From the IMG/VR virus record IMGVR_UViG_3300045988_103857: 64,000 nt of DNA; one strand, given 5' to 3'. Each line of letters begins with the position of its first letter. The first letter of the stretch is position 1. Positions 11,082 to 54,398 of this stretch are shown piece by piece. Both the position numbers and the translations under genes were made by a program. Under the pieces are notes generated by a model, which searched no databases, was not told the origin of the DNA, and worked only from the letters and a program-made list of their open reading frames with translations. The DNA comes from a virus.

Positions 11082-12257
11082 ATGAAAAGATATTGCAAGG
11101 CCATTGATATAACAGACCGCGGATTAATCAGCACAGCGGTATATAAATGTCTGAAGAAAAAGTACAAAAGAAATGATGTACTGAGATTACTTAGTACATA
11201 TACGACTTTGGATGTTAATCAAATTTAATGCATTTTCAGAAGAAACGGAAAGAATGCCATTCGTTTTCTGGTGGAAGCAGTGATTGATGATATCCAGAAT
11301 GAAATCATTAACTGGGACATTAAATTCCCTCCGGTATGGTACCGGGAAAAAGTAGACCCATCGTCCGGGAAAATCCGTAGAATCGGAATCCAGAATATAA
11401 AGCATCAGTTGTATGATTACATAGCAGTTATAGCATTGCAGCCTATTCTGAAACGCATTGGAGAGCATCAGTACGCTTCCATCAAAGGGCGTGGGACTCT
11501 AAAAGGTGCAAGGGACGTAAGAAGATGGTTGAGAAACCATAAGCTCACATTCGTTGCTCAGGCAGACGTAAAGAAATGTTATGAGAGCATAGATAGGGAT
11601 AAGCTTATGCAATTCCTGGAATGCCACATCAAGAACGATCTGCTGATTAAATTGATCAGAAAATTGATTTACAGTTTTGAGAAAGGCCTGAGTATAGGCT
11701 CATATCTTAGCCAGTTTCTCTGCAATCTGTATATGAGCATCCTGTATCATCATGTTGCCGAAGGAATGTACCGTACCAGAAAGCACCGGAATGGATGCAG
11801 TGAGCGGATTAATCTTGTTAAGAAGCAAACGTTTTATATGGATGATACGCTGTTTGCCGGAACAAATAAGAAAGACATCAAGAAAGCAATGAAAATGTTC
11901 ATTAGAAAAGCAAAAGATATGGGGCTGACCATTAAGAACACCTTCCGTATCTACAAAATAACTGGAACATTCGTGGATATGATGGGATACCGGATATATC
12001 AGCATAAAATGACTGTTCGCAGAAGAAACTTCCGTAGAATCAGAAGGGCATATAAAAAGGCCCTAAAATGTTATGAGACACATAAACCAATTCCATTTAA
12101 ACTGGCAAAACGATGTAGTAGTTTCTATGGATTCCTGAAGAATACAAATAGTAAGCACATCCGGAAGAAATGGAAAGTAAAGAAGATTATGAAGATATGT
12201 AAAGGGGTGATAAAACGTGAAGAAAGTAAAATTTACACAGAAACAGCCATTGCTTAA
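11082..12257 (+). CDS. DGR reverse transcriptase; frame interrupted by in-frame TAA at 11226..11228 (uninterrupted ORF from GTG 11271)
   Basis: Contains YMDD (FYMDDTLF), SIGSYLSQ (the [LIV]GxxxSQ signature of DGR RTs) and RT motif 1/2 (GKIRRIGIQ). The N-terminal 48 codons from ATG 11082 are in the same frame. Confidence 0.85.
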
Positions 12258-35776: not shown

Positions 35777-37804
35777 ATGAAGAAAATCGAAGTAAGAGAA
35801 ATTAGATTGACCGATTTTAAAGGCCAGTCAGAAAAGAAAATAGAGTTCGGACACAGAACAGTCGTTTCCGGGAAGAACGGATGCGGAAAAACCACACTGG
35901 CAGACGCTCATATGTGGGAGTTTTGCGACAAAGACTACAGTTTAAAGAGCAACCCGGATATCAGACCGGATGATGGCAGAGAATGTCTGCCAAGAGTTGA
36001 TATTGGCCTTGTAATTGATGGAAAGCCAGTAAGCGTAGCGAAGTTCCAGAAACGCACAGAAAGTAAGCCAAAGGACGGAAAACCGGGAAAGGTTGCATTA
36101 TCAAACAAGTACGAAATCAACGGCGTTCCGAAAGCTGAAAGAGATTTTAAAGCTGATTTGAAAGAACGGGGGTTTGACTTTGATAATTTCCTTATGCTGT
36201 CTCACATGGAAATCTTCACATATCTGAAAGATACAGATGCCAGAAAGATTCTGTTTTCCATGTCAGACGGTGCCGGGAAATCAGATTTAGAGATTGCCAA
36301 GACGGTTCCAGATTGTGCCGAGTTGGTACCACTTCTGGAAACCTACAAGGCAGACGAAATCAAAGCCATGAACAGTGCAACACTGAAAAAGGCAGAAGAA
36401 CAACTAAAAGCCATTCCAAACCAGATTATCGGCATGGAGCAGTCGAAAGTTGATGCTGATACCGCTGAATTGGAATTGCAGAAGAATGCCTTGCAGGAAC
36501 AGATTTCTGACCTTGAAACGCAGATTGCACAGTCAGGAAACGAGCGTAGCAGCAAACTCAGAGCAGAACTTTCAGATTTAGGTGTTAGAAAATATTCTTT
36601 CGAGTCAAAAGCACATGAAGAAATCTCGACAAGGAAAACTGCAATTCAAATTAAAATCAATGAGTTGCGGACAGAAAGAAATCTGAAAGCAGCCGAATTA
36701 AACAGGGAGACTTCTGCTTTGGTAATTCTGAGAGCGCAGAAGAAAGAACTTCTCGAAAAGTTACAGAACGCCAGAACACAGTATCCCAAAATCAAAGATA
36801 CAGAATGGGACAACACAGCTCTGGACAACATTGAATCTGAGACATTCAAGGATGCAGAGACCATTTGCCCGACTTGCGGTCAGAATCTTCCGCCAGAGCA
36901 GATTGAGCAGTTAAAGAGCAGATTTGAACAGAAAAAGCAGGAAAGAATCAATCAGCAGTTAAAGGCTAAGGAAGAATGGGAACAGGACAAGAAACGCAAA
37001 CTTGATGAAGTTATTCAGGCTGGAAACAAAGCGTCTGTCGATATGAAAGAAGCGCATAAGCAGGAAGAAACTCTTACATCCGAGATTTCCAAGCTGACAG
37101 GGGAATTAGAACAGATCAAAACTTCTCTGGATGCAGAAAACAAGAATCTGGAAGCCATACCGACAGAACCAGACTTCTCAGGAAATGCCGAATATCAGCA
37201 GATTCTTGCATCAATCAAAGAGAAACAGCAGGAGCTTAATTCTCTGGACAATGGAGAAGAAGCGAAGAAACAGCTTTCAGAGCAGTTATCCGACAAAAAA
37301 CAGGAATTGGCAGCAGTCAATCAGAGAATCGGAGAAGCCAACAACAACGTCCGAATCGACGAACAGATCGAGAAGCTTCAGGAAAGCCAGAAACAGTACG
37401 CACAGAAGAAAGCTGATGCACAGATGATTCTGGACGAATTGAAATCACTGAGTATGGCAAAGAATACAGCCCTTGAAGATGCGGTAAACCAGTATTTTGA
37501 CGGTGTTAAGGTGAAGTTATTTGATACGCAGAAAAATGGTGAAGTAGTAGATGCTTGCATCTGGTACGTGCAGGACAAGGACGGCGACTGGAAGAAACTG
37601 ATTGGGAACGCCAATACAGCCCTGATGATGAAAGGAAAAATTGCCATCATGGACGGCTTGCAGAAGTTTTATGGCGTGAGCTATCCGATTTTCGTTGACT
37701 GTGCAGCAGAACTGGATAACAGCAGTCTGGCAGGCATTAAGGCAGATGCGCAGTTGATATTCTTGAAAGTTTCTGAGGGGGATATGACGGTAACGGAAAT
37801 TTGA
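35777..37804 (+). CDS. Rad50/SbcC-like AAA ATPase with coiled coil and CxxC hook
   Basis: Walker A GKNGCGKTT, a ~400-aa coiled coil with a central CPTCGQ, and a C-terminal signature/Walker B region. Confidence 0.7.
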   Translation: MKKIEVREIRLTDFKGQSEKKIEFGHRTVVSGKNGCGKTTLADAHMWEFCDKDYSLKSNPDIRPDDGRECLPRVDIGLVIDGKPVSVAKFQKRTESKPKDGKPGKVALSNKYEINGVPKAERDFKADLKERGFDFDNFLMLSHMEIFTYLKDTDARKILFSMSDGAGKSDLEIAKTVPDCAELVPLLETYKADEIKAMNSATLKKAEEQLKAIPNQIIGMEQSKVDADTAELELQKNALQEQISDLETQIAQSGNERSSKLRAELSDLGVRKYSFESKAHEEISTRKTAIQIKINELRTERNLKAAELNRETSALVILRAQKKELLEKLQNARTQYPKIKDTEWDNTALDNIESETFKDAETICPTCGQNLPPEQIEQLKSRFEQKKQERINQQLKAKEEWEQDKKRKLDEVIQAGNKASVDMKEAHKQEETLTSEISKLTGELEQIKTSLDAENKNLEAIPTEPDFSGNAEYQQILASIKEKQQELNSLDNGEEAKKQLSEQLSDKKQELAAVNQRIGEANNNVRIDEQIEKLQESQKQYAQKKADAQMILDELKSLSMAKNTALEDAVNQYFDGVKVKLFDTQKNGEVVDACIWYVQDKDGDWKKLIGNANTALMMKGKIAIMDGLQKFYGVSYPIFVDCAAELDNSSLAGIKADAQLIFLKVSEGDMTVTEI

Positions 37805-38217
37805 GAAAAGTGGAACAGCTAGGAACTTGTTTGGCGACAGCCTAGCTGCTCCACACAAAATATAGAGCAAACTATATTTGCTAATAGCATAACAGATAAT
37901 TTTAGCTTAATCAAGCTACAGGTGATTTTGCACCTGCAAAGTGAGGAACGTGTTCACTCACTAGAATCCATGTAAATTTAATATTTGAGGTTTGACAGAC
38001 CTGTGAATTTGCATGGGTACAAAACGGTTCGAGAATGGACTTGACATTGGCTTTGGGTTTGGAGCCCTGAAAAATAGCGTAGGTACGAAACTAAGGATCT
38101 GATCAGGAAGTGTATCCAGAGCGGTTTGGGAACCTACAAAACAACAAACAGTACAGATGCAATCACGCAAATAGCGTGTTGGCAAATATATAAAAAATAT
38201 AGAAAAGGAGAATTGTT

Positions 38218-39168
38218 ATGGCAAACAAAACACAGTTAGCAACAGCAGGAGAACAGCAGGCGGCAATCGTAATCAACAACTCATTCATTGATGGGTTGGT
38301 TAAGCAGCTTGAAAAAAAATGCGAATACGGTCTTTCATTCCCAAAAGACTACAACCTCAGTAATGCGCTCATGGGGGCATATTTGACTCTGAAAGAGACA
38401 AAAGACAGAAATAATAAGCCAATTCTGGAATCTTGCACAGCTACAAGCATTGCAAACAGCCTTATGAACATGGCAACGCTCGGACTTTCAGTTCAGAAAA
38501 AACAGGGTTATTTCATTGCCTACGGCGGTCAGTGCCAGTTCCAAAGGTCTTACTTCGGAAACATTACAATCGCCAGAAGATATGGAATGAAAGATATCCA
38601 TGCCGAGATCATCTACGATGGTGATAAGTTCAAATACCACATCGAAGATGGAAACAAGGTTCTGGATTCTCACGAACAGGATTTTATGGACATTGACAAC
38701 GATCAGATTCTTGGGGCATATGCAGTAGTGCTGATGGAAGATGGAACAAAGCATCTGGAAGTAATGAACATAAAACAGATCAAACAGGCTTGGTCACAGG
38801 GCTATGGTTACAAGGAAAGCGGTAATGGAACACACCAGAAGTTTACTGACCAGATGGCAAAGAAAACAGTTATCAATCGTGCGTTAAAGCAGATTATCAA
38901 TAGTCATGGTGATATTTTCATTCAGGAAGTTGAGGAAGCCACAGAAGAAATTCCAAAGCAGGACATTATTGAGCACGAAGTTGCTTATGAAATCGAGCAG
39001 AACGCCAATGCAGAAGAGTTTGTCCCAGATGAGCCGGCAGCAATCGAAGAACAGCCTAAACAGTCAACAGTCGCAGAAGTCGTAAAGACTGCCGAGAAAG
39101 AACCAGTTCCGGCAGCAGACAAACAGGAAACAGAGATTCCAGATTTTATGAAGCCAGAAGAGATGTGA
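38218..39168 (+). CDS. recT: RecT-family single-strand annealing recombinase
   Basis: The sequence pattern SIANSLMNMATLGLSVQKKQGYFIAYGGQCQFQRSYFG...AKKTVINRALK is typical of RecT. Confidence 0.8.
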   Translation: MANKTQLATAGEQQAAIVINNSFIDGLVKQLEKKCEYGLSFPKDYNLSNALMGAYLTLKETKDRNNKPILESCTATSIANSLMNMATLGLSVQKKQGYFIAYGGQCQFQRSYFGNITIARRYGMKDIHAEIIYDGDKFKYHIEDGNKVLDSHEQDFMDIDNDQILGAYAVVLMEDGTKHLEVMNIKQIKQAWSQGYGYKESGNGTHQKFTDQMAKKTVINRALKQIINSHGDIFIQEVEEATEEIPKQDIIEHEVAYEIEQNANAEEFVPDEPAAIEEQPKQSTVAEVVKTAEKEPVPAADKQETEIPDFMKPEEM

Positions 39169-39174
39169 TCGCAT

Positions 39175-39357
39175 ATGATGTACGGCGACTGCATCAATTT
39201 CGACCGATGTGACTGCGGTAAATTCGGTCACGGTATGACTCAGATCGGGCGGTGTGAAAACTGCCCGTACTATGAGTCGGTAAAAGGCTATTTCGAAAAA
39301 AGAGGTGAGAACTATGAGGATTATATCACAGGATGGAAAAATCAATCTTCCGTATGA
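39175..39357 (+). CDS. small Cys-rich protein
   Basis: 60 aa with 5 Cys. Confidence 0.35.
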   Translation: MMYGDCINFDRCDCGKFGHGMTQIGRCENCPYYESVKGYFEKRGENYEDYITGWKNQSSV

Positions 39358-39547
39358 AATGACAGCGTTGCTTGTTTCGGACAACTACATACAGGCGGTA
39401 TTTGCCGGAGGGATACAGCAAAGTCCGTATGTGATGGCAATGTACTCGACGCAGGATAAATTGCAGGATGCACTTGATGTGCTTGATAGAAGATTTGTCG
39501 GCATGGGTGATGGGATTTTTAGATTTCCAAAGGATGACAAAGTATGA
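39314..39547 (+). CDS. hypothetical protein
   Basis: GAGGTGAG RBS before the ATG at 39314. Confidence 0.4.
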   Translation: MRIISQDGKINLPYEMTALLVSDNYIQAVFAGGIQQSPYVMAMYSTQDKLQDALDVLDRRFVGMGDGIFRFPKDDKV

Positions 39548-40113
39548 AAGAAGAATGGAAATGGGTAAATGGTTTCGAGGGATTATACCAAATTTCAAAT
39601 ACAGGGAAGCTGAAAAGTTTTAGAAAAGATTCAAGTGGACACATAATGTCGAATAAGGATAAAAACGGATGGTATTTTACGGTAAACCTATATGACGAAA
39701 GAAATAAATGTCATACAACTAGAATACATACATTAGTTGCTAAACATTTCATAGGGGAAATTCCGAAAGGATACCACGTACATCATATAGATGGCAATAA
39801 GCAGAACAACGTAGTTACCAACTTGAAAATAATGCATCCGTCAGAACATAGAAAAGAGACTGCTAAAATGCTCCCGCAGATAGATACGGGGATGATTCAT
39901 TATAACCAGTATGAACGCCCGAAAACAATATATATGTATGATACGAACGGAAACTATTTAGCTTCTTTTCCAAATGCAATGACAGCGTCAATTATTACTG
40001 GCATATGTTCCAGAAATATACTTCAAGTTGCAAATAAAAATGAATATAAACCGGGGAGAGTAAGGAAAACAGCCGGAGGGTTTGTGTGGAAGTTTGAAAG
40101 AGAGGTGGTTTGA
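39544..40113 (+). CDS. free-standing HNH homing endonuclease (NUMOD4 + HNH_3)
   Basis: Contains WKWVNGFEGLYQISNTGKLKS and HTLVAKHF...VHHIDGNKQNNVVTNL. It is a paralogue in type of 2969..3529. Confidence 0.8.
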   Translation: MKEEWKWVNGFEGLYQISNTGKLKSFRKDSSGHIMSNKDKNGWYFTVNLYDERNKCHTTRIHTLVAKHFIGEIPKGYHVHHIDGNKQNNVVTNLKIMHPSEHRKETAKMLPQIDTGMIHYNQYERPKTIYMYDTNGNYLASFPNAMTASIITGICSRNILQVANKNEYKPGRVRKTAGGFVWKFEREVV

Positions 40114-40114
40114 A

Positions 40115-40291
40115 ATGTTCATGAAAATAATAAATACAGGTAGCCAGCCGGGAAACTGCTACGCACTTAAATCTGAATCTGGCGAAATCTTGCTTATGGA
40201 TTGCGGATGTAGATACTCGGAAATCCTGAAAGGAATTTCTTATAGGATATCAGAAGTTTCGGGGTGCTTATTAAGTCATGAACATGGTTAA
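40115..40291 (+). CDS. MBL-fold metallo-hydrolase, N-terminal fragment ending inside the HxHxDH motif
   Basis: GAGAGGTGG RBS. The fragment reads ...LLMDCGCRYSE...CLLSHEHG and is then stopped by a TAA. Confidence 0.7.
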   Translation: MFMKIINTGSQPGNCYALKSESGEILLMDCGCRYSEILKGISYRISEVSGCLLSHEHG

Positions 40292-40295
40292 TTAA

Positions 40296-40862
40296 GGCGA
40301 CCATAAGAAGTCGTACAAAGAAATATTGAATGCCGGCATTCAAATTTACACCAATGACGAGACAGTTAAGAGTGTAAACACAATCTCTGGTGAGCTGATG
40401 ATCGGCTTACCAGAAAAGAAATCGAAGGACATAGGTTCGTTCCGGGCAACGCCTTTCTACGTCCCGCACGACAAGACACCAAACTTTGCATACCTGATAT
40501 CTCACGAAGAATGCGGACGACTGATATATGCGACAGACTTCTCATATTTGTCGTTCACATTCAAGAACATGAGAATAAATCACTTCCTTATAGAATGTAA
40601 TCATCTTGATGAATCGCCGGAGCAGGATTCATTTAAGTTTGAACACTCCATCCGGGGGCACAGCAGTTTATCTACTGTAAAAGAGATTATCCGAGTGAAC
40701 AAGACCGCTTCACTCAGGACTATAACGCTGTGTCACCTGTCAGAGGAATGGGGAGACCCGGAAGTGATGCAGAAAGAGATACAGGACGTTGCCGGGGATG
40801 ATGTTCTGGTGCAAATCGCAAGACCGGGATTGGAAGTCGACTTGAACTTATGCCCGTTTTGA
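40296..40862 (+). CDS. MBL-fold metallo-hydrolase, remainder of gene in +1 frame (begins GDH...; no canonical start before TTG 40326)
   Basis: The frame opens at 40296 with GGC GAC CAT (G-D-H), completing HEHGDH. The downstream sequence FYVPHD...YATDFSY is MBL-like. Confidence 0.7.
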   Translation, partial: GDHKKSYKEILNAGIQIYTNDETVKSVNTISGELMIGLPEKKSKDIGSFRATPFYVPHDKTPNFAYLISHEECGRLIYATDFSYLSFTFKNMRINHFLIECNHLDESPEQDSFKFEHSIRGHSSLSTVKEIIRVNKTASLRTITLCHLSEEWGDPEVMQKEIQDVAGDDVLVQIARPGLEVDLNLCPF

Positions 40863-40873
40863 AAGGAGAAGAA

Positions 40874-41440
40874 ATGGAAATTGATAAATCAAAATTAAAG
40901 TTGGGAATTTGGTATGAGGATGAAAACGGAAATTTAATTAAGTCAGAAGATGATTTGGCATGTGAAGCACCAGAAGGAGCGAGAACGTACCATTCCTGCT
41001 TTCCGTTACAAATAACAGAACACGTTTATGTAGTGCATGGCAAAGCTGAGAAAGAAGCGTGCAAGCACAAACGGAAATATTGGAAAAAGGATACAGGTCT
41101 GATAAAGGGATTGAAAGGCCATATATGCACTAATTGTGGGTCTAGCCAAACAAGAAAGTGGTGGCAGCCATGGGGAAGAAAATGGGATTATGGAACGGAT
41201 ACTACACCACTTATTGACTTTCATACAAGTATTGGAGGTGGAAATCAAGATGTCATAATGGCAATGGTAAACAGCGGAGATTATACATTACAGGAAGCAC
41301 TTGTTGTTTTTTCTACGGCCTGCGAAAGATGTATGAATGTGCTTGCATACAAGTATTTGAACGGAGCAGATGGGTACGAAGAATATTCAGATGAGTGGAA
41401 AAAATGCAATACTGAATGCGATTTTTGCAAGAATAGTTAA
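40874..41440 (+). CDS. hypothetical Cys-rich protein
   Basis: AAGGAG RBS before the ATG at 40874. Confidence 0.4.
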   Translation: MEIDKSKLKLGIWYEDENGNLIKSEDDLACEAPEGARTYHSCFPLQITEHVYVVHGKAEKEACKHKRKYWKKDTGLIKGLKGHICTNCGSSQTRKWWQPWGRKWDYGTDTTPLIDFHTSIGGGNQDVIMAMVNSGDYTLQEALVVFSTACERCMNVLAYKYLNGADGYEEYSDEWKKCNTECDFCKNS

Positions 41441-42318: not shown

Positions 42319-42378
42319 GTGAAATCCCTCCCTTGTTTTTTAGAATATTGTAGCATTTTTGCCTGTCGGTGTCAATCA

Positions 42379-42442
42379 GATACCAAAGTGGTATCATTTT
42401 TATCTTGCAATACAGGTATCGAAGTGGTATCATAATGGTATC
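42379..42442. promoter_or_regulatory. operator-like GGTATC/GATACC repeats between the RHH gene and the GIY-YIG gene
   Basis: Inverted repeat GATACCAAAGTGGTATC (42379..42395) and three direct GGTATC copies (42415..42442). Confidence 0.55.
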
Positions 42443-42457
42443 AAAGGCACACTGAAA

Positions 42458-43075
42458 ATGAATCGAGGTGATAAGTCTTTGAATAGTAACTATAAAAATT
42501 TTGTAAAAGCTAAGGCGATTGAAGCCGAGAACCGAAAGAGATGGCTCAAGCTCAATCCAAATTTGAATGATAATTCGGGAGTCTATATTTTACGCAGAGT
42601 TGATGAAGACGGATTCAAGTTTGGGTATGCAGGGCAGGCAAAACATATACTCACCAGATTGTGCCAGCACAGTGCAGGACATCAGCAACACATTGATTTG
42701 AGCCTTAAGAAACATGGCTTATATTCAGAAAACAATCCCTACGGATGGACAGTGATCTGTGAGAATTTTTCCGAAGCTAGCCTTGATAGAGCCGAACAGT
42801 TTTACATCAAATGGCTTGCAGATCAGGGATATCAGCTTAGAAATAAGACTGGTGGCTCTCAGGGAGCAGGAAAGAAACAGATTGATGAGTACAGACTGGC
42901 AAAAGGTTATTACGATGGTTTGAAGCAGGGCAAAAAATCCCTCGCCAGAGAACTTTCACACATCATAGATACACACTTGCAAGTTTCACTGAAACCAGAG
43001 AAGCAGAATAATAAAGTATCAATCCGGGCTTTTGAAAGGTTTCAGAACTTGATTGATGAGAAAACGTACGAATAA
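42458..43075 (+). CDS. GIY-YIG domain nuclease
   Basis: Contains GVYILRR...FKFGYAGQAKHILTRLCQH...RAEQFYIKWL (GIY..YxG..R..H..E). Confidence 0.65.
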   Translation: MNRGDKSLNSNYKNFVKAKAIEAENRKRWLKLNPNLNDNSGVYILRRVDEDGFKFGYAGQAKHILTRLCQHSAGHQQHIDLSLKKHGLYSENNPYGWTVICENFSEASLDRAEQFYIKWLADQGYQLRNKTGGSQGAGKKQIDEYRLAKGYYDGLKQGKKSLARELSHIIDTHLQVSLKPEKQNNKVSIRAFERFQNLIDEKTYE

Positions 43076-43132: not shown

Positions 43133-43966
43133 ATGAAATTAAAATGTGAAATATACAGAGACTCAATGCAAAATTACAAGAAATATGCAATTCCAAGAGC
43201 ACAGCTCGTTATAGCTGATGTTCCGTATAATGTAGCGAATAATTTTTACGGGAGCAACCCTATGTGGTATGTAGGGGGGGATAATAAAAATGGTGAAAGT
43301 AAACTAGCAGGAAAAGCTGCCTTTAATTCAGATTTTAATTTTAACTTATATGAATACTTTCACTTTTGTTCAAGAATGTTAAAAAAAGAAGATACAACAC
43401 CTGTGCCAAGAGGAAGAAGTAGCAATTCTCCATGCATGATTGTATTTTGCTCGTTTGAACAAACACAAACATTGATTAAAGCTGCTGAAAAACATGGTTT
43501 TGTACATTATATCCCACTTGTTTTCATAAAAAATTACAGCCCTCAAGTATTAAAAGCAAATATGCGTGTGGTTGGAGCTACGGAATACGCATTATTGTTT
43601 TACAGAGACAGGCTTCCTAAGTTTAGGAACGGCGTTCAGACTGACGAAAATGGAAAAACAATCAGAGGTACAGGGCACATGGTTTTTAACTGGTTCGATT
43701 GGGAGAAAGATGGAAAAGATATTCCTAAAATTCATCCGGCACAAAAGCCAGTCAAACTTTTAAAAAGATTGATTGAAACGTTTACTGATCCCGGAGATGT
43801 AGTAATAGACCCATGTTGCGGAAGCGGGACAACGTTAAGAGCTGCACATGAAATAGGAAGAAATGCTTTCGGATTTGAAATTGATAGAAATTTCTTTAAG
43901 AGAGCAAAAGAAGAAATGCTTGTTTTTGAGGAAAACAGTCAGATAAGCATAGAAGATTTTTTGTAA
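43133..43966 (+). CDS. N6-adenine/N4-cytosine DNA methyltransferase (N6_N4_Mtase, beta class)
   Basis: Catalytic DVPY (DPPY-like) at the N-terminus, and HPAQKP...VVIDPCCGSGTT AdoMet motif near the C-terminus. Confidence 0.8.
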   Translation: MKLKCEIYRDSMQNYKKYAIPRAQLVIADVPYNVANNFYGSNPMWYVGGDNKNGESKLAGKAAFNSDFNFNLYEYFHFCSRMLKKEDTTPVPRGRSSNSPCMIVFCSFEQTQTLIKAAEKHGFVHYIPLVFIKNYSPQVLKANMRVVGATEYALLFYRDRLPKFRNGVQTDENGKTIRGTGHMVFNWFDWEKDGKDIPKIHPAQKPVKLLKRLIETFTDPGDVVIDPCCGSGTTLRAAHEIGRNAFGFEIDRNFFKRAKEEMLVFEENSQISIEDFL

Positions 43967-44913: not shown

Positions 44914-46296
44914 ATGAAATTCATAGATTTTTTTGCCGGAATCGGAGGTTTTCGCAAAGGAATGGAATTGGCAGGGCATGAGTGCGTAGGGTTTTGCGAG
45001 TTTGATAAATTTGCGACTGCGAGTTATATCTCAATGCACTTGCTGACAGACGAGCAGCGAAAGACATTGGGAGATATTCCTATCAAGAAAAGACAGAAAG
45101 AAATATTAAAGGAGGAATACAGAAATGGAGAATGGTATGCAAATGACATTAGAAGAGTGTATGCCAGAGACATTCCAAAAGCCGACTGCTGGTGTTTCAG
45201 ATTCCCTTGCCAGGACATATCCGTTGCAGGAAAGCAAGCCGGATTTCAAGGAAACCGTTCAAGCCTGTTTTTCAGAGTTATGTACCTTGTCGGACAGCTC
45301 AAAGAAGAAGATAAACCCACTTACCTTTTCATTGAGAACGTTAAAAATCTGCTTAGTGTTAATGGAGGATGGGATTTCGCCAGATTGCTCATTGAAATGG
45401 AGCAGGGAGGGTATGATGCAGAATGGCAGGTGCTCAACTCCAAAGATTTCGGAGTGCCACAAAACCGGGAAAGATGTTTTATTATCGGACATCTTAGAGG
45501 AAGAAGTACCTCAAAAATATTTCCTATCGAAGGAACAGACGGAAAAAATAGTGTTCAAATAATTGCACACAAAGACGGATATAGAAGAAATACACAAGTG
45601 TTTGCACCTGATGGAATTACCGAGACTCTTGATACTGGACAAGGTGGTGGAAGAGGGCATCATGTAGCATTGCCGTGTTTTGTTGATTTGAGTTATCAAA
45701 AAGCAGAGTTGACCAATAAAGCAAGGTGTTTACAAGCCAGATGCAACAAAGGAATCGTAAATCATAAAGCTGAAGTAAGTGGAGTTGCAATTCCAGTATT
45801 GACACCAGACAGGGCAGAGAAACATCAGAACGGAAGAAGGTTCAAAGAAGATGGCGAGCCAATGTTCACACTGACAGGACAGGACCGGCACGGAATCGCG
45901 ATTGAAGTCAAGGAAGCAACGAAGCAAGGTTATACAGAATGCAGAGTGGGAATTGACAGCGTGAACTTCTCAATGCCAAACAGCAAGACAAGAAGAGGAA
46001 GAGTCGGACAAGAAATCGCCAACACACTCGACACGAGCTGCAATCAAGGAATATTCGTGCAGGTATCAGAAGAATTAACGGTATATGCAGTCTGGTATGA
46101 AAAATATCAGTGTTACATAGCAATCAGAAAGCTGACACCGAAAGAATGTTTTCGGCTGCAAGGTTGGCCTGATGATTATTTTGAAAAAGCACAGTTCGTA
46201 AATTCTGACAGCCAGTTATACAAGCAGGCAGGAAACGGCGTAACAGTGACAGTTATAGAAGCCATGGCAAGAAAAATGAACGTAAATCTAAATTGA
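44914..46296 (+). CDS. C-5 cytosine DNA methyltransferase
   Basis: Motif I FFAGIGGF, motif IV FPCQDIS, motif VI ENVKNL, motif VIII QNRERCFIIG and motif X QAGNGV. Confidence 0.85.
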   Translation: MKFIDFFAGIGGFRKGMELAGHECVGFCEFDKFATASYISMHLLTDEQRKTLGDIPIKKRQKEILKEEYRNGEWYANDIRRVYARDIPKADCWCFRFPCQDISVAGKQAGFQGNRSSLFFRVMYLVGQLKEEDKPTYLFIENVKNLLSVNGGWDFARLLIEMEQGGYDAEWQVLNSKDFGVPQNRERCFIIGHLRGRSTSKIFPIEGTDGKNSVQIIAHKDGYRRNTQVFAPDGITETLDTGQGGGRGHHVALPCFVDLSYQKAELTNKARCLQARCNKGIVNHKAEVSGVAIPVLTPDRAEKHQNGRRFKEDGEPMFTLTGQDRHGIAIEVKEATKQGYTECRVGIDSVNFSMPNSKTRRGRVGQEIANTLDTSCNQGIFVQVSEELTVYAVWYEKYQCYIAIRKLTPKECFRLQGWPDDYFEKAQFVNSDSQLYKQAGNGVTVTVIEAMARKMNVNLN

Positions 46297-53183: not shown

Positions 53184-54398
53184 ATGAATAATGACGACTT
53201 GAAATATGCAATTGAGAATGGTATCATCAATTTGTCTCACATACAAGAGCAAGTTGAAATGAATAAAAGGGAAGATATATTAAAAGAATACAGGGACAGT
53301 ATATGGAAGGCATCTGACGGATATTGGAAAATTCGTATGACTTATGACGAAACCGGACAGAGGAAAATGTTTAAGCGTCGGTCTAAACAGGATTTAGAGG
53401 ACTTGATTGTAAAGACACACCGTGAGAAAGCAGAGAATCCAAAGATTAAGAGCGTATTCGAAGAATGGGCACAGCGCAAGGTTGAATTGAACAAGATTTC
53501 AATTCAAACATACCAGAGGTATCAGCAGGACTTCAATCGGTTTTTTGGAACCATGGGCGAACGCAGAATCAAAGACCTTGAGTCAGAGGATATCAGCAAC
53601 TTCCTGGAAGAACAGATCAGCGAACACAATCTAACCGCAAAAGCTTTCTGCAATCTTAAGACAATTACCAGAGGTACCCTGAAGTGGGCGAAGCGCAACA
53701 AGCTGATTGATTGGAACGTGCAGGAATTATTCTATGACTTGGATGTCACCGATAAATCTTTCAAAAGAAATATCAAAGAAGATTCAGAAGAAGTATTTAA
53801 TGATGCTGAAATGGACAGGATGATTGATTACTTAAAAGATAATCAGGATATAATAAATCTTGGCATTATGCTTATGTTCGTAACTGGTCTGAGAGTTGGG
53901 GAGCTATGCGCTTTGAAATGGAATGATTGGCTACCACATATCAGTACGATTAAAGTCAGAAGAACGGAAGTAAGGCACTTTGAAAACCATAAAGGCATTT
54001 TTGAAGTCAAAGACTTTCCGAAAACAGAAGCAGGCGTGAGAAATGTAGTAGTTCCTCAGGGATGCATCTGGATATTGCAGAAACTCAGAAATATGTCGGC
54101 ATTCTGCGAATATATATTTTCTAAAGATGGAAAGCGATTAAATACTTATTCGTTCAGGAACCGGTTAAGAACAGTGTGCAAGAAAACTGGTTGTATTCAA
54201 AAATCACCGCATAAAATACGAAAAACATATTGCACGATATTACTCGACCACAGCATAGATAATCAGATGGTCACATCACAGATGGGCCACACAAATATTT
54301 CGTGTTCCGAGAACTACTACCACAGAGATCGAAAGGACCTCAAGAAAAAACAAAAAATCATGGACAGCATAGATGAATTTATGGTAGTATCAAGATAG
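53184..54398 (+). CDS. int: tyrosine site-specific recombinase (phage integrase)
   Basis: SAM-like N-domain, then the catalytic region ...TGLRVGELCAL..., HKIRKTYCT..., GHTNISCSENYYHR. Confidence 0.85.
   Translation: MNNDDLKYAIENGIINLSHIQEQVEMNKREDILKEYRDSIWKASDGYWKIRMTYDETGQRKMFKRRSKQDLEDLIVKTHREKAENPKIKSVFEEWAQRKVELNKISIQTYQRYQQDFNRFFGTMGERRIKDLESEDISNFLEEQISEHNLTAKAFCNLKTITRGTLKWAKRNKLIDWNVQELFYDLDVTDKSFKRNIKEDSEEVFNDAEMDRMIDYLKDNQDIINLGIMLMFVTGLRVGELCALKWNDWLPHISTIKVRRTEVRHFENHKGIFEVKDFPKTEAGVRNVVVPQGCIWILQKLRNMSAFCEYIFSKDGKRLNTYSFRNRLRTVCKKTGCIQKSPHKIRKTYCTILLDHSIDNQMVTSQMGHTNISCSENYYHRDRKDLKKKQKIMDSIDEFMVVSR

Follow-up and report, generated by a model that had tools for sequence, protein, structure and literature searches.

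A metallo-beta-lactamase (MBL)-fold hydrolase gene in the virus record IMGVR_UViG_3300045988_103857 of IMG/VR, analysed here as one stretch of 64,000 nucleotides (nt; hereafter the window), is interrupted by 10 nt inside the codons of its metal-binding motif HxHxDH and lies directly downstream of a gene for an HNH homing endonuclease. We consider it likely that the two make up an HNH homing cassette: the mini-insert would shield the target of the nuclease and be tolerated via a hop of peptidyl-tRNA-Gly from GGU to GGC. The case for the hop rests on comparative evidence from related sequences. The features of the locus in the window are as follows:

39544..40113, + strand: HNH open reading frame (ORF) of 189 amino acids (aa), free-standing, with a TGA stop at 40111-40113 and NUMOD4, HNH_3 and weak NUMOD1 domains.
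40115..40288, + strand: segment 1 of the MBL-fold hydrolase gene, codons 1-58, ending in ...CLLSHEHG and homologous to the N-termini of the intact 245-aa proteins P0001 and P0002.
40286..40288, + strand: proposed take-off codon GGT, whose Gly is the x residue of HxHxDH.
40289..40291, + strand: TAA stop, in the A site when GGT occupies the P site.
40289..40295, + strand: untranslated 7-nt gap TAATTAA; in relatives it varies, 11 loci having TGATTAA and 8 loci a lone TTAA unit as part of the 6-nt form GGT TAA GGN.
40296..40298, + strand: proposed landing codon GGC (Gly), the first GG dinucleotide past the take-off codon; relatives keep the GG and vary the wobble base (GGC, GGA or GGT).
40299..40862, + strand: segment 2 of the MBL gene, beginning GAC CAT (DH), with 187 codons and a TGA stop (40860-40862).
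39517..40298, + strand: approximate mobile block of HNH gene, MBL codons 1-58 and insert, as delimited by sliding identity to the loci L099 and L098.
40299..40332, + strand: insert-linked block of fixed differences, DHKKSYKEILNAG here vs DHLKSFQNLMQSG in the intact alleles of the same clade.

The coordinates given in the preliminary description of the window were correct when re-read: the ATG of the MBL gene (40115) is placed 1 nt past the stop of the HNH gene, GGT at 40286-40288 is followed immediately by TAA, and the protein continues in the +1 frame from 40296. That frame is open for 189 codons from the GGC, up to the TGA at 40860-40862, and translation confirmed that the segments of 58 and 189 codons are otherwise free of stops. 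Both TAA codons claimed to block a simple slip in two frames, at 40289 and 40293, are present, the second (40293-40295) closing the +1 frame ahead of GGC GAC CAT. Removal of the 10 nt, which can be written as GGTTAATTAA or TTAATTAAGG at this junction, yields CAT GAA CAT GGC GAC CAT, encoding HEHGDH, and a joined ORF of 245 aa that matches MBL-fold profiles, as had been predicted. The adjoining gene was also rightly called as an HNH homing endonuclease, since ORF 39544-40113 carries NUMOD4 and HNH_3 domains. The frequency of the word TTAATTAA is ordinary (three copies in the window vs 3.8 expected); what is beyond chance is the placement of the insert, not the word itself. Another copy of TTAATTAA, at 40934-40941, is read in frame as N-L-I-K in the next ORF (40850-41440) and fits chance.

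Relatives were gathered by a protein search with the joined 245-aa sequence, an exact-pattern scan of IMG/VR and a gene-based scan for MBL loci; 131 MBL loci were inspected first and 78 further loci later, ~200 in total. We show that ~85 of these ~200 loci are interrupted, every time between the x and Asp codons of HxHxDH, by 13 counted insert types with shifts of +1, +4, +5, +6, +8, +10, +11 and +12. The exact-pattern scan found the window's own insert in nine IMG/VR contigs and the gene search found it in 22, and the interrupted junction is present across independent assemblies from IMG/VR, ENA, Logan and metagenome-assembled genomes (MAGs). Because the same junction is interrupted in ~85 independent contigs, assembly error is ruled out; the interruption is neither an assembly artefact nor a private pseudogene. 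The protein search returned the intact 245-aa homologues P0001 and P0002 at 89-90% identity, in clusters of 338 and 788 members, together with many C-terminal fragments of 178-199 aa (68-96% identity, clusters of up to 431 members). MAGs of Blautia, Roseburia, Butyribacter and other Clostridia also contain relatives of the MBL gene.

A set of 88 alleles (80 loci from the gene-based scan, 7 Logan/ENA loci and the window) was classified by junction, and all 88 give a clean 245-codon ORF after insert removal. As had been anticipated, alignment with homologous MBL genes reveals insert-free alleles, which make up class A of this set:

Class A, intact: 53 loci of 88, CAT GGA CAC GGA GAT CAC.
Class B, +6: 8 loci of 88, GGT TAA GGC or GGA.
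Class C, +10, the window included: 9 loci of 88, GGT TAA TTA AGG C or A.
Class C2, +10: 11 loci of 88, GGT TGA TTA AGG T.
Class D, +1: 7 loci of 88, CAT GGG TGA CCA T.

Further types were found via the neighbours of HNH homologues:

GGT TAA CCC ATG GC: +11.
GGT TAA ATA CTG GGC: +12, in frame.
GGT TAG GN: +5, landing on GGA, GGC or GGT.
GGC TGA AAG GA: +8.
GGC TAA CAA AGG T: +10.
CTC TGA CTG: +6, Leu-stop-Leu.
TAT TGA C GAY: +4.
CTT TGA C: +1, the prfB site; L216 reads CAT CTT TGA CCA C.
TCG TAA CT: +5.

The MBL C-part of a further phage group shares 49% identity with that of the window; in this second group, 54 alleles are intact, 11 carry GGT TAA GGY, seven carry GGT TGA GY and six carry the +11 form. 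The 6-nt insert GGT TAA GGN is seen in two MBL lineages 49% identical to each other, each time amid native flanks (in the second group, L259-L282 and L306); either short-patch transfer, with the conserved motif codons serving as homology, or repeated origin would account for this sharing. In the TGAGY form of the second group (L313-L330 region), the stop is kept and the first G of the landing codon is lost.

The inserts follow a rule. A stop codon (TAA, TGA or TAG) stands directly 3' of the x codon in 13 of 13 types, the chance of a stop at that place being 3/64 for each of the 11 multi-nucleotide types. Eight of these 11 end in a codon with the x codon's first two bases (chance 1/16 each), and the probability of that many matched endings is ~1e-6 with possibly related types allowed for. 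Overall, 10 of the 13 types have either a matched end codon (Gly..Gly, Leu..Leu) or a +1 shifty stop (GGG UGA C, CUU UGA C). Where the x residue is Leu, in a distant lineage, the duplicated codon is likewise Leu (CUC UGA CUG). The third base of the landing codon is free within a type (GGC, GGA, GGT), and TAA alternates with TGA alone. All multi-nucleotide Gly-type inserts follow GGT or GGC as the x codon, while intact alleles of the clade use GGA or GGG. The matched codons GGT (40286-88) and GGC (40296-98) flank the gap in the window, and the GG is conserved across 28 close alleles; the order of Gly take-off, immediate stop and Gly landing first noticed in the window is kept among relatives while insert length and sequence vary. 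There are exceptions to the placing of the landing codon: GGG stands one base before GGC in the +12 type, and an equivalent CUG overlaps the take-off codon at +2 in CTC TGA CTG.

Classes B (in frame, +6) and C (+10), both of the window's clade, differ by one TTAA unit. Only a hop from the Gly codon to the next GGN would restore HEHGDH in both, readthrough being able to serve class B alone, because class C is out of frame; readthrough is moreover unsuitable because it would add residues inside a motif of fixed spacing.

Selection on the downstream part was estimated as the pairwise Nei-Gojobori ratio of non-synonymous to synonymous substitution rates (dN/dS) within classes. We obtained 0.124 for class B (+6), 0.105 for class C (+10 TAA), 0.081 for class C2 (+10 TGA) and 0.081 for class D (+1), with 0.087 for intact alleles, and 1.0-1.7 for the same sequences in wrong frames. 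The +1 class is common to lineages with saturated dS (2.4), at a dN/dS of 0.08. A test on private variants was adopted in place of within-class dN/dS, for a reason given below. In the clade of the window, private variants are 20 synonymous to 22 non-synonymous for interrupted and 44 to 38 for intact alleles; a second clade gives 13 to 18 and 53 to 47, respectively. The pooled counts (40 non-synonymous to 33 synonymous in interrupted alleles vs 85 to 97 in intact ones) do not differ significantly. With a neutral non-synonymous:synonymous ratio of 3.66, the non-synonymous share of interrupted private variants is 0.55 vs a neutral expectation of 0.785; the interrupted alleles are far from neutral and slightly, not significantly, more relaxed than the intact ones. 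Taken together, these values suggest that, read in the shifted frame, the downstream part still experiences purifying selection. Second lesions were seen in one of ~85 interrupted and one of ~115 intact alleles (L301, 790-1620, has an intact junction and a 1-nt deletion downstream), and no whole-gene deletion was found at the MBL position among 88 close relatives. Decay of the gene in relatives, which the preliminary description had named as the mark of a plain pseudogene, was not seen in the set of 88 alleles, all of which are open after insert removal. The dN/dS of 0.08-0.12, the private variants and the single second lesion in ~85 interrupted alleles speak against a plain pseudogene.

The HNH protein matches PF13392 (3.8e-12), PF07463 (2.4e-10) and phrog_59 (2.8e-28), with PF07453 at 0.0019, below its cutoff. 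Its homologues were sought in IMG/VR, JGI/ENA metagenomes and MAGs, and identity was measured to the window protein. All homologues of at least 41% identity (to 100%; L097-L115, L158-L168, L216, L238-L240) lie directly upstream of an MBL gene, as does L169 at 38% identity; the other homologues at or below 38% do not. We show that 33 of the 37 HNH-adjacent MBL genes are interrupted, and that the four intact ones have Phe, Thr or Leu, not Gly, as the x residue. An uninterrupted GGN-GAY junction occurs in 0 of 37 HNH-adjacent MBL genes vs 56 of 89 HNH-less ones, which lends indirect support to a nuclease that would cut the insert-free allele and leave its own uncut. When loci are retrieved via the MBL gene alone, five of the 35 interrupted alleles have an HNH gene beside them and none of the 59 intact ones does (p = 0.006). 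The proposed co-occurrence of insert and HNH gene holds in one direction: an HNH gene implies interruption, but interruption does not imply an HNH gene, 30 of these 35 interrupted alleles having none nearby; strict co-occurrence is ruled out, the gene being present in just 3 of 35 interrupted close relatives. Because most interrupted alleles are without a nearby HNH gene, the insert appears to outlive or outrun the nuclease gene.

At its fixed position upstream of the MBL gene, the HNH gene is polymorphic, being present in the window, L076/L097, L098 and L091 and absent from 83 other close relatives. In both HNH-less relatives checked, a 69-aa ORF occupies this position (L020:3771-3980, L070:3769-3978); therefore, the nuclease gene would have replaced a resident small gene and not entered an empty intergenic space. 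Sliding identity between the window and L099 is <0.5 left of 39535, 0.75-0.90 from 39535 to ~40255 and ~0.5 past the junction; against L098, the left edge of the block lies near 39517. In L099-L103, the HNH gene and MBL N-part are 83-87% identical to those of the window, with a C-part at 49%. Within the second group, cassette N-parts are 98-100% alike and native N-parts are ~70% identical to those of the cassette; the +11 alleles all carry the cassette N-part (98-100%), including L251, which has no HNH gene. These mosaics show a single block on the move, made up of HNH gene, MBL codons 1-58 and insert. The view that HNH gene and insert travel together, as in T4 mobA, is borne out to the extent that the mosaic block entered MBL genes 49% identical downstream.

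On a finer scale, nine fixed differences separate the 53 intact from the 28 interrupted alleles of the window's clade, all at positions 174-208 of the coding sequence (window 40288-40332), in what looks like a short co-conversion tract; the junction peptides of interrupted and intact alleles differ in the KKSYKEILNAG block. The window and L097 (IMG/VR contig 3300045988_101626) are identical over 37544-40390 except for one 11-column patch near 38950; past 40390 they differ by 5-6% through the remainder of the MBL gene, and over the next gene (40850-41440) they are unrelated. This comparison appears to indicate very recent recombination break-points just downstream of the junction. Overall, the pattern is that expected of a homing element whose protective insert would spread beyond the nuclease gene and persist after its loss. 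The cultured Polaribacter phage Danklef_2 (L249, MT732459.1 24842-26095), which infects marine Bacteroidota, has RecT, then the HNH gene as two overlapping and apparently degenerate ORFs, then an intact MBL gene (SHKHGDH). From this gene order, the HNH-MBL partnership therefore seems to reach beyond gut Bacillota phages, here with a decayed nuclease and an unprotected target.

From these patterns we infer the cleavage specificity of the nuclease, the protection by the insert and the hop. The nuclease would cut uninterrupted alleles of co-infecting phages at or near the conserved motif sequence, and repair would copy the insert and sometimes the nuclease gene too. By altering the spacing of the target, the insert would protect its carrier; because the motif cannot take extra amino acids, only untranslated bases could bring about such a change. 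During translation, peptidyl-tRNA-Gly would sit on GGU (40286-40288), in a G-U wobble with its GCC anticodon, with UAA in the A site. The tRNA would then unpair, the mRNA would slide by 10 nt and the tRNA would re-pair with GGC (40296-40298) as a full Watson-Crick pair. Decoding would resume at GAC CAU to give the normal 245-aa enzyme with one Gly at the junction, the predicted junction peptide being ...SGCLLSHEHGDHK (tryptic form ISEVSGCLLSHEHGDHK). The hop may be inefficient, with most ribosomes possibly ending at the stop and releasing the 58-aa peptide; for an enzyme, a low yield may suffice. The proposed event resembles unstimulated synthetic stop-hops of Escherichia coli more than gene 60, because no conserved RNA structure was found and the upstream peptide is native enzyme sequence. 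Classes B and C create UAAGG(N)GA (window 40293-40300), which overlaps the landing codon and is Shine-Dalgarno-like, being complementary to the 3' end of 16S rRNA; as it is missing from other insert types (TAACCCATGGC, TGACTG), it is not a general feature.

Several observations weigh against a hop that yields functional enzyme, and many of them would suit a selfish knock-out, in which the insert is an immunity scar or gene-drive payload, the MBL gene is dispensable and put out of action with no full-length product, and the healthy look of the gene comes from recent conversion and recombination with intact alleles. The stop context in the window is UAA-U, an efficient, strong terminator in E. 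coli. Folds of 12 representative sites contain no conserved RNA structure (z-scores of -2.2 to +0.7, and -0.09 for the window site, with structures that differ by class). A cassette-specific nascent peptide is likewise absent, the 58 residues upstream of the junction being the native MBL N-terminus, 81-93% identical to that of intact alleles. Unstimulated stop-hops in E. coli occur at a low level (PMC5009743). Three insert types land on poorly matched codons, with pairing at one or two positions (GGT TGA GY on AGY, TCG TAA CT on ACT, TAT TGA C on GAC), and the duplicated first two bases could be a footprint of repair and not a selected landing site. At the level of lineages, the association of HNH gene and interruption is not significant (16/20 vs 10/18, Fisher test, p = 0.16). 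In the +11 class, the proportion of synonymous differences (pS) is 0 in the N-part and 0.23 in the C-part, as a recently spread cassette would leave it, and linkage around the insert decays within ~35 nt. Because the diversity that flanks a recombining insert can predate its arrival, within-class dN/dS is weaker evidence than it seems and was downgraded as proof of post-insertion selection. Finally, L300 (GGT TAA GGT; 1300-2150) has a 26-nt insertion and a diverged patch downstream, the sole decaying interrupted allele seen, and the slight non-synonymous excess among interrupted private variants, not significant as it is, points the same way.

Even so, a knock-out seems rather unlikely to us. 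A dead gene gives no reason for a universal initial stop or a mostly matched end codon, nor for a landing wobble that is synonymous only or a TAA that changes to TGA only. Knocked-out alleles would also have to have private variants well off neutrality, second lesions no commoner than in intact alleles, no whole-gene deletion in 88 close relatives and a +1 class that spans lineages with a dS of 2.4 at a dN/dS of 0.08. We regard as very improbable a two-piece enzyme, in which termination is followed by nearby re-initiation and the 58-aa N-fragment and the C-fragment assemble non-covalently, as in topoisomerase II (Topo II) split by MobA and NrdA split by MobE. Splitting of proteins at metal-binding sites by homing-endonuclease insertions has been described for MobA and MobE (10.1101/2022.08.31.505936), and gene callers predict 191-aa products starting MNMGDH in the +1 class, where stop and ATG overlap (C ATG GGT GA). 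The +6, +10, +11 and +12 forms, by contrast, are without an in-frame start between the stop and the DH codons. Near the window junction there is likewise no in-frame start for a DH-containing C-fragment; the first candidate, TTG at 40326, has no Shine-Dalgarno sequence and would drop the Asp and His ligands. The split moreover falls within the core beta-sandwich, and one mechanism should account for all classes. An artefact or trivial decoding, under which we group assembly or sequencing error, an engineered PacI linker, stop reassignment, suppressor readthrough and transcriptional slippage, is hardly credible. Although TTAATTAA is a PacI site that contains stops, the same and related inserts occur in many independent assemblies, as set out above, which rules out an assembly error or a PacI linker. 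All three stop codons are used and most forms need a change of frame, so that reassignment or readthrough would be insufficient; no tRNA gene lies within the window, which rules out a phage suppressor tRNA encoded there, and no homopolymer run supports slippage.

Residues 3-241 of the joined 245-aa protein align with phrog_392, a family of metal-dependent hydrolases (E = 2e-56), and the protein also matches the Pfam families Lactamase_B and Lactamase_B_2. An AlphaFold2 (AF2) model of the intact homologue P0001, 90% identical, has a predicted local distance difference test score (pLDDT) of 93 and an alpha-beta/beta-alpha sandwich fold; its best PDB matches are 1zkp and 6kns, at a template modelling (TM) score of ~0.75 (B. 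anthracis ElaC homologue and B. subtilis YhfI, respectively). In this model, the junction is placed in the core metal-binding loop and not at a domain boundary. Identity as the anti-Pycsar nuclease Apyc1 was not supported beyond a general likeness of fold, the match to PF23023 reaching 15.3 bits vs a cutoff of 50 and covering the motif region alone, and the TM score of the model to 7u2r being 0.65, under that to YhfI; a PDB sequence search gave no Apyc1 match for the MBL protein. The HxHxDH motif and the fold are those of the ElaC/YhfI/RNase Z branch. We therefore class the enzyme not as Apyc1 but as a probable MBL phosphodiesterase of the ElaC/YhfI type, belonging to the recombination module of the phage.

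Several known systems come close to the locus. A mobA/gene 60 bypass cassette was reportedly described in phage T4 by Bonocora et al. in 2011. As in T4, a short first segment (58 codons here, 46 in T4) comes straight after an HNH-family homing-endonuclease gene; a Gly take-off codon, a stop, an untranslated insert and a matched Gly landing codon follow one another; the insert breaks a metal-binding motif; nuclease gene, first segment and insert form one moving block; and the nuclease gene is often lost with the insert retained. The systems differ in the gap (47-50 nt in T4 vs 7 nt, a 10-nt shift, here), in the target (Topo II of T4-like myoviruses vs an MBL-fold hydrolase of Bacillota gut phages), and in that T4 has one homologous cassette whereas many independent insert lengths (1-12 nt) occur here. 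The take-off and 5' stem-loops and the cassette peptide of gene 60 were not detected here, an SD-like UAAGG being present in some classes, and the whole target gene here lies downstream of the HNH gene, unsplit by it. Homology to the 50-nt insert of gene 60 is impossible for a gap of 7 nt. Accordingly, the proposal of a bypass cassette like that of T4 stands as regards the matched codons, the stop and the HNH block, but not as regards gap length, stem-loop or cassette peptide. In a survey by Manning & Atkins (2022), gene 60-type cassettes are found solely in Topo II genes with MobA-type elements and the cassette is called unique; an insert that persists and spreads beyond the nuclease gene is likewise described there for MobA/gene 60 (10.1101/2022.08.31.505936).

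Stop-hops offer a closer parallel. In the synthetic E. coli constructs of Weiss et al. (1987), as outlined in a 2016 recoding review, matched codons around a stop allowed 9 nt to be decoded as one amino acid; the same review holds natural in-frame stop-hops to be unknown and shorter counterparts of bypassing to be long expected (PMC5009743). Our loci share with them the matched codons that flank a stop and the absence of a stimulatory signal, at 9-18 nt here; the window has GGU UAA UUA A GGC and its relatives GGU UAA GGN, CUC UGA CUG and GGU UAG GN, of which GGT TAA GGN and CTC TGA CTG are exactly of the synthetic form. They differ in that the former are engineered and of low efficiency in E. 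coli, whereas the pattern here is natural, recurrent and apparently maintained by selection. Like the CUU UGA C site of prfB (release factor 2), L216 and the +1 class GGG TGA C would re-pair at +1 beside a weak UGA-C and so restore the DH codons, here with no visible upstream Shine-Dalgarno stimulator and no autoregulatory logic. The window, unlike prfB, would need a 10-nt hop, because the TAA at 40293 blocks its +1 frame.

Further parallels come from inserts of other kinds. In the collaborative homing of cyanophage psbA and F-CphI, a free-standing endonuclease is joined by an intron that breaks its target site. Here as there, the nuclease gene is beside its target and a separate insertion breaks the recognition site yet preserves the protein; the psbA intron is removed by RNA splicing, whereas a 1-12 nt insert would have to be removed at translation. 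The mitochondrial byps of Magnusiomyces (Lang et al. 2014; Nosek et al. 2015) are 27-55 nt, GC-rich and structured, and carry no link to a homing endonuclease (PMC5009743). They too are short mobile coding inserts neutralised by bypassing with matched take-off and landing codons, and differ from ours in being longer (27-55 nt), mitochondrial, structured and unlinked to a homing endonuclease.

The neighbourhood of the locus comprises genes for RecT (38218-39168), an SbcC-like ATPase (35777-37804), tape-measure protein, endolysin, integrase and DNA methyltransferases, from which the window would appear to be a temperate siphovirus-like phage. The integrase gene (53184-54398) and two DNA methyltransferase genes (43133-43966, 44914-46296) are taken to indicate a temperate phage with anti-restriction methylation. 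Relatives' contigs measure 75-80 kb. A 328-aa ORF in the structural-gene region (11271-12257) matches the reverse-transcriptase family phrog_1423 (E = 2e-57) and may be part of a diversity-generating retroelement. Three ORFs downstream of the MBL gene lies a second homing-endonuclease-like gene, again free-standing (42359-43075; GIY-YIG, phrog_19106). No cultured phage with an interrupted example was found in the GenBank phage set, the nearest being MT838995.1, an unannotated faecal scaffold, and Danklef_2.

Full-text literature searches on HNH, MBL, bypass and stop-hop returned no description of such a system. A homing nuclease with an untranslated protective insert is already known; what is new is a short, signal-free, multi-variant form in another gene, nuclease lineage and host phylum. 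On balance, the comparison of alleles inclines us to the wider view that gut phages of Lachnospiraceae and other Clostridia carry a large and diversifying family of natural stop-hops or short bypasses (1-12 nt), which would have arisen repeatedly as immunity inserts of one HNH lineage in MBL HxHxDH codons. Gene callers split such genes into fragments of 58 aa and 178-191 aa, and clusters of hundreds of these stand in public protein sets; an abundant enzyme, functional if the hop takes place, would thus be annotated as broken. Programmed bypassing has had essentially one well-studied bacterial example, T4 gene 60, and about a dozen natural variants in gap length, stop and landing codon are now on offer in a different gene, host phylum and nuclease lineage. 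With them it becomes testable 1) what the minimal signal for hopping is, 2) why bypass inserts accompany homing endonucleases, and 3) how an insert spreads without its nuclease gene. Should our reading hold, this family would be the first case in which stop-hopping is used naturally and under selection, and the second independent partnership of homing endonuclease and bypass after T4 gene 60, and Bacillota ribosomes would tolerate hops well enough to make a functional enzyme without dedicated RNA or peptide signals.

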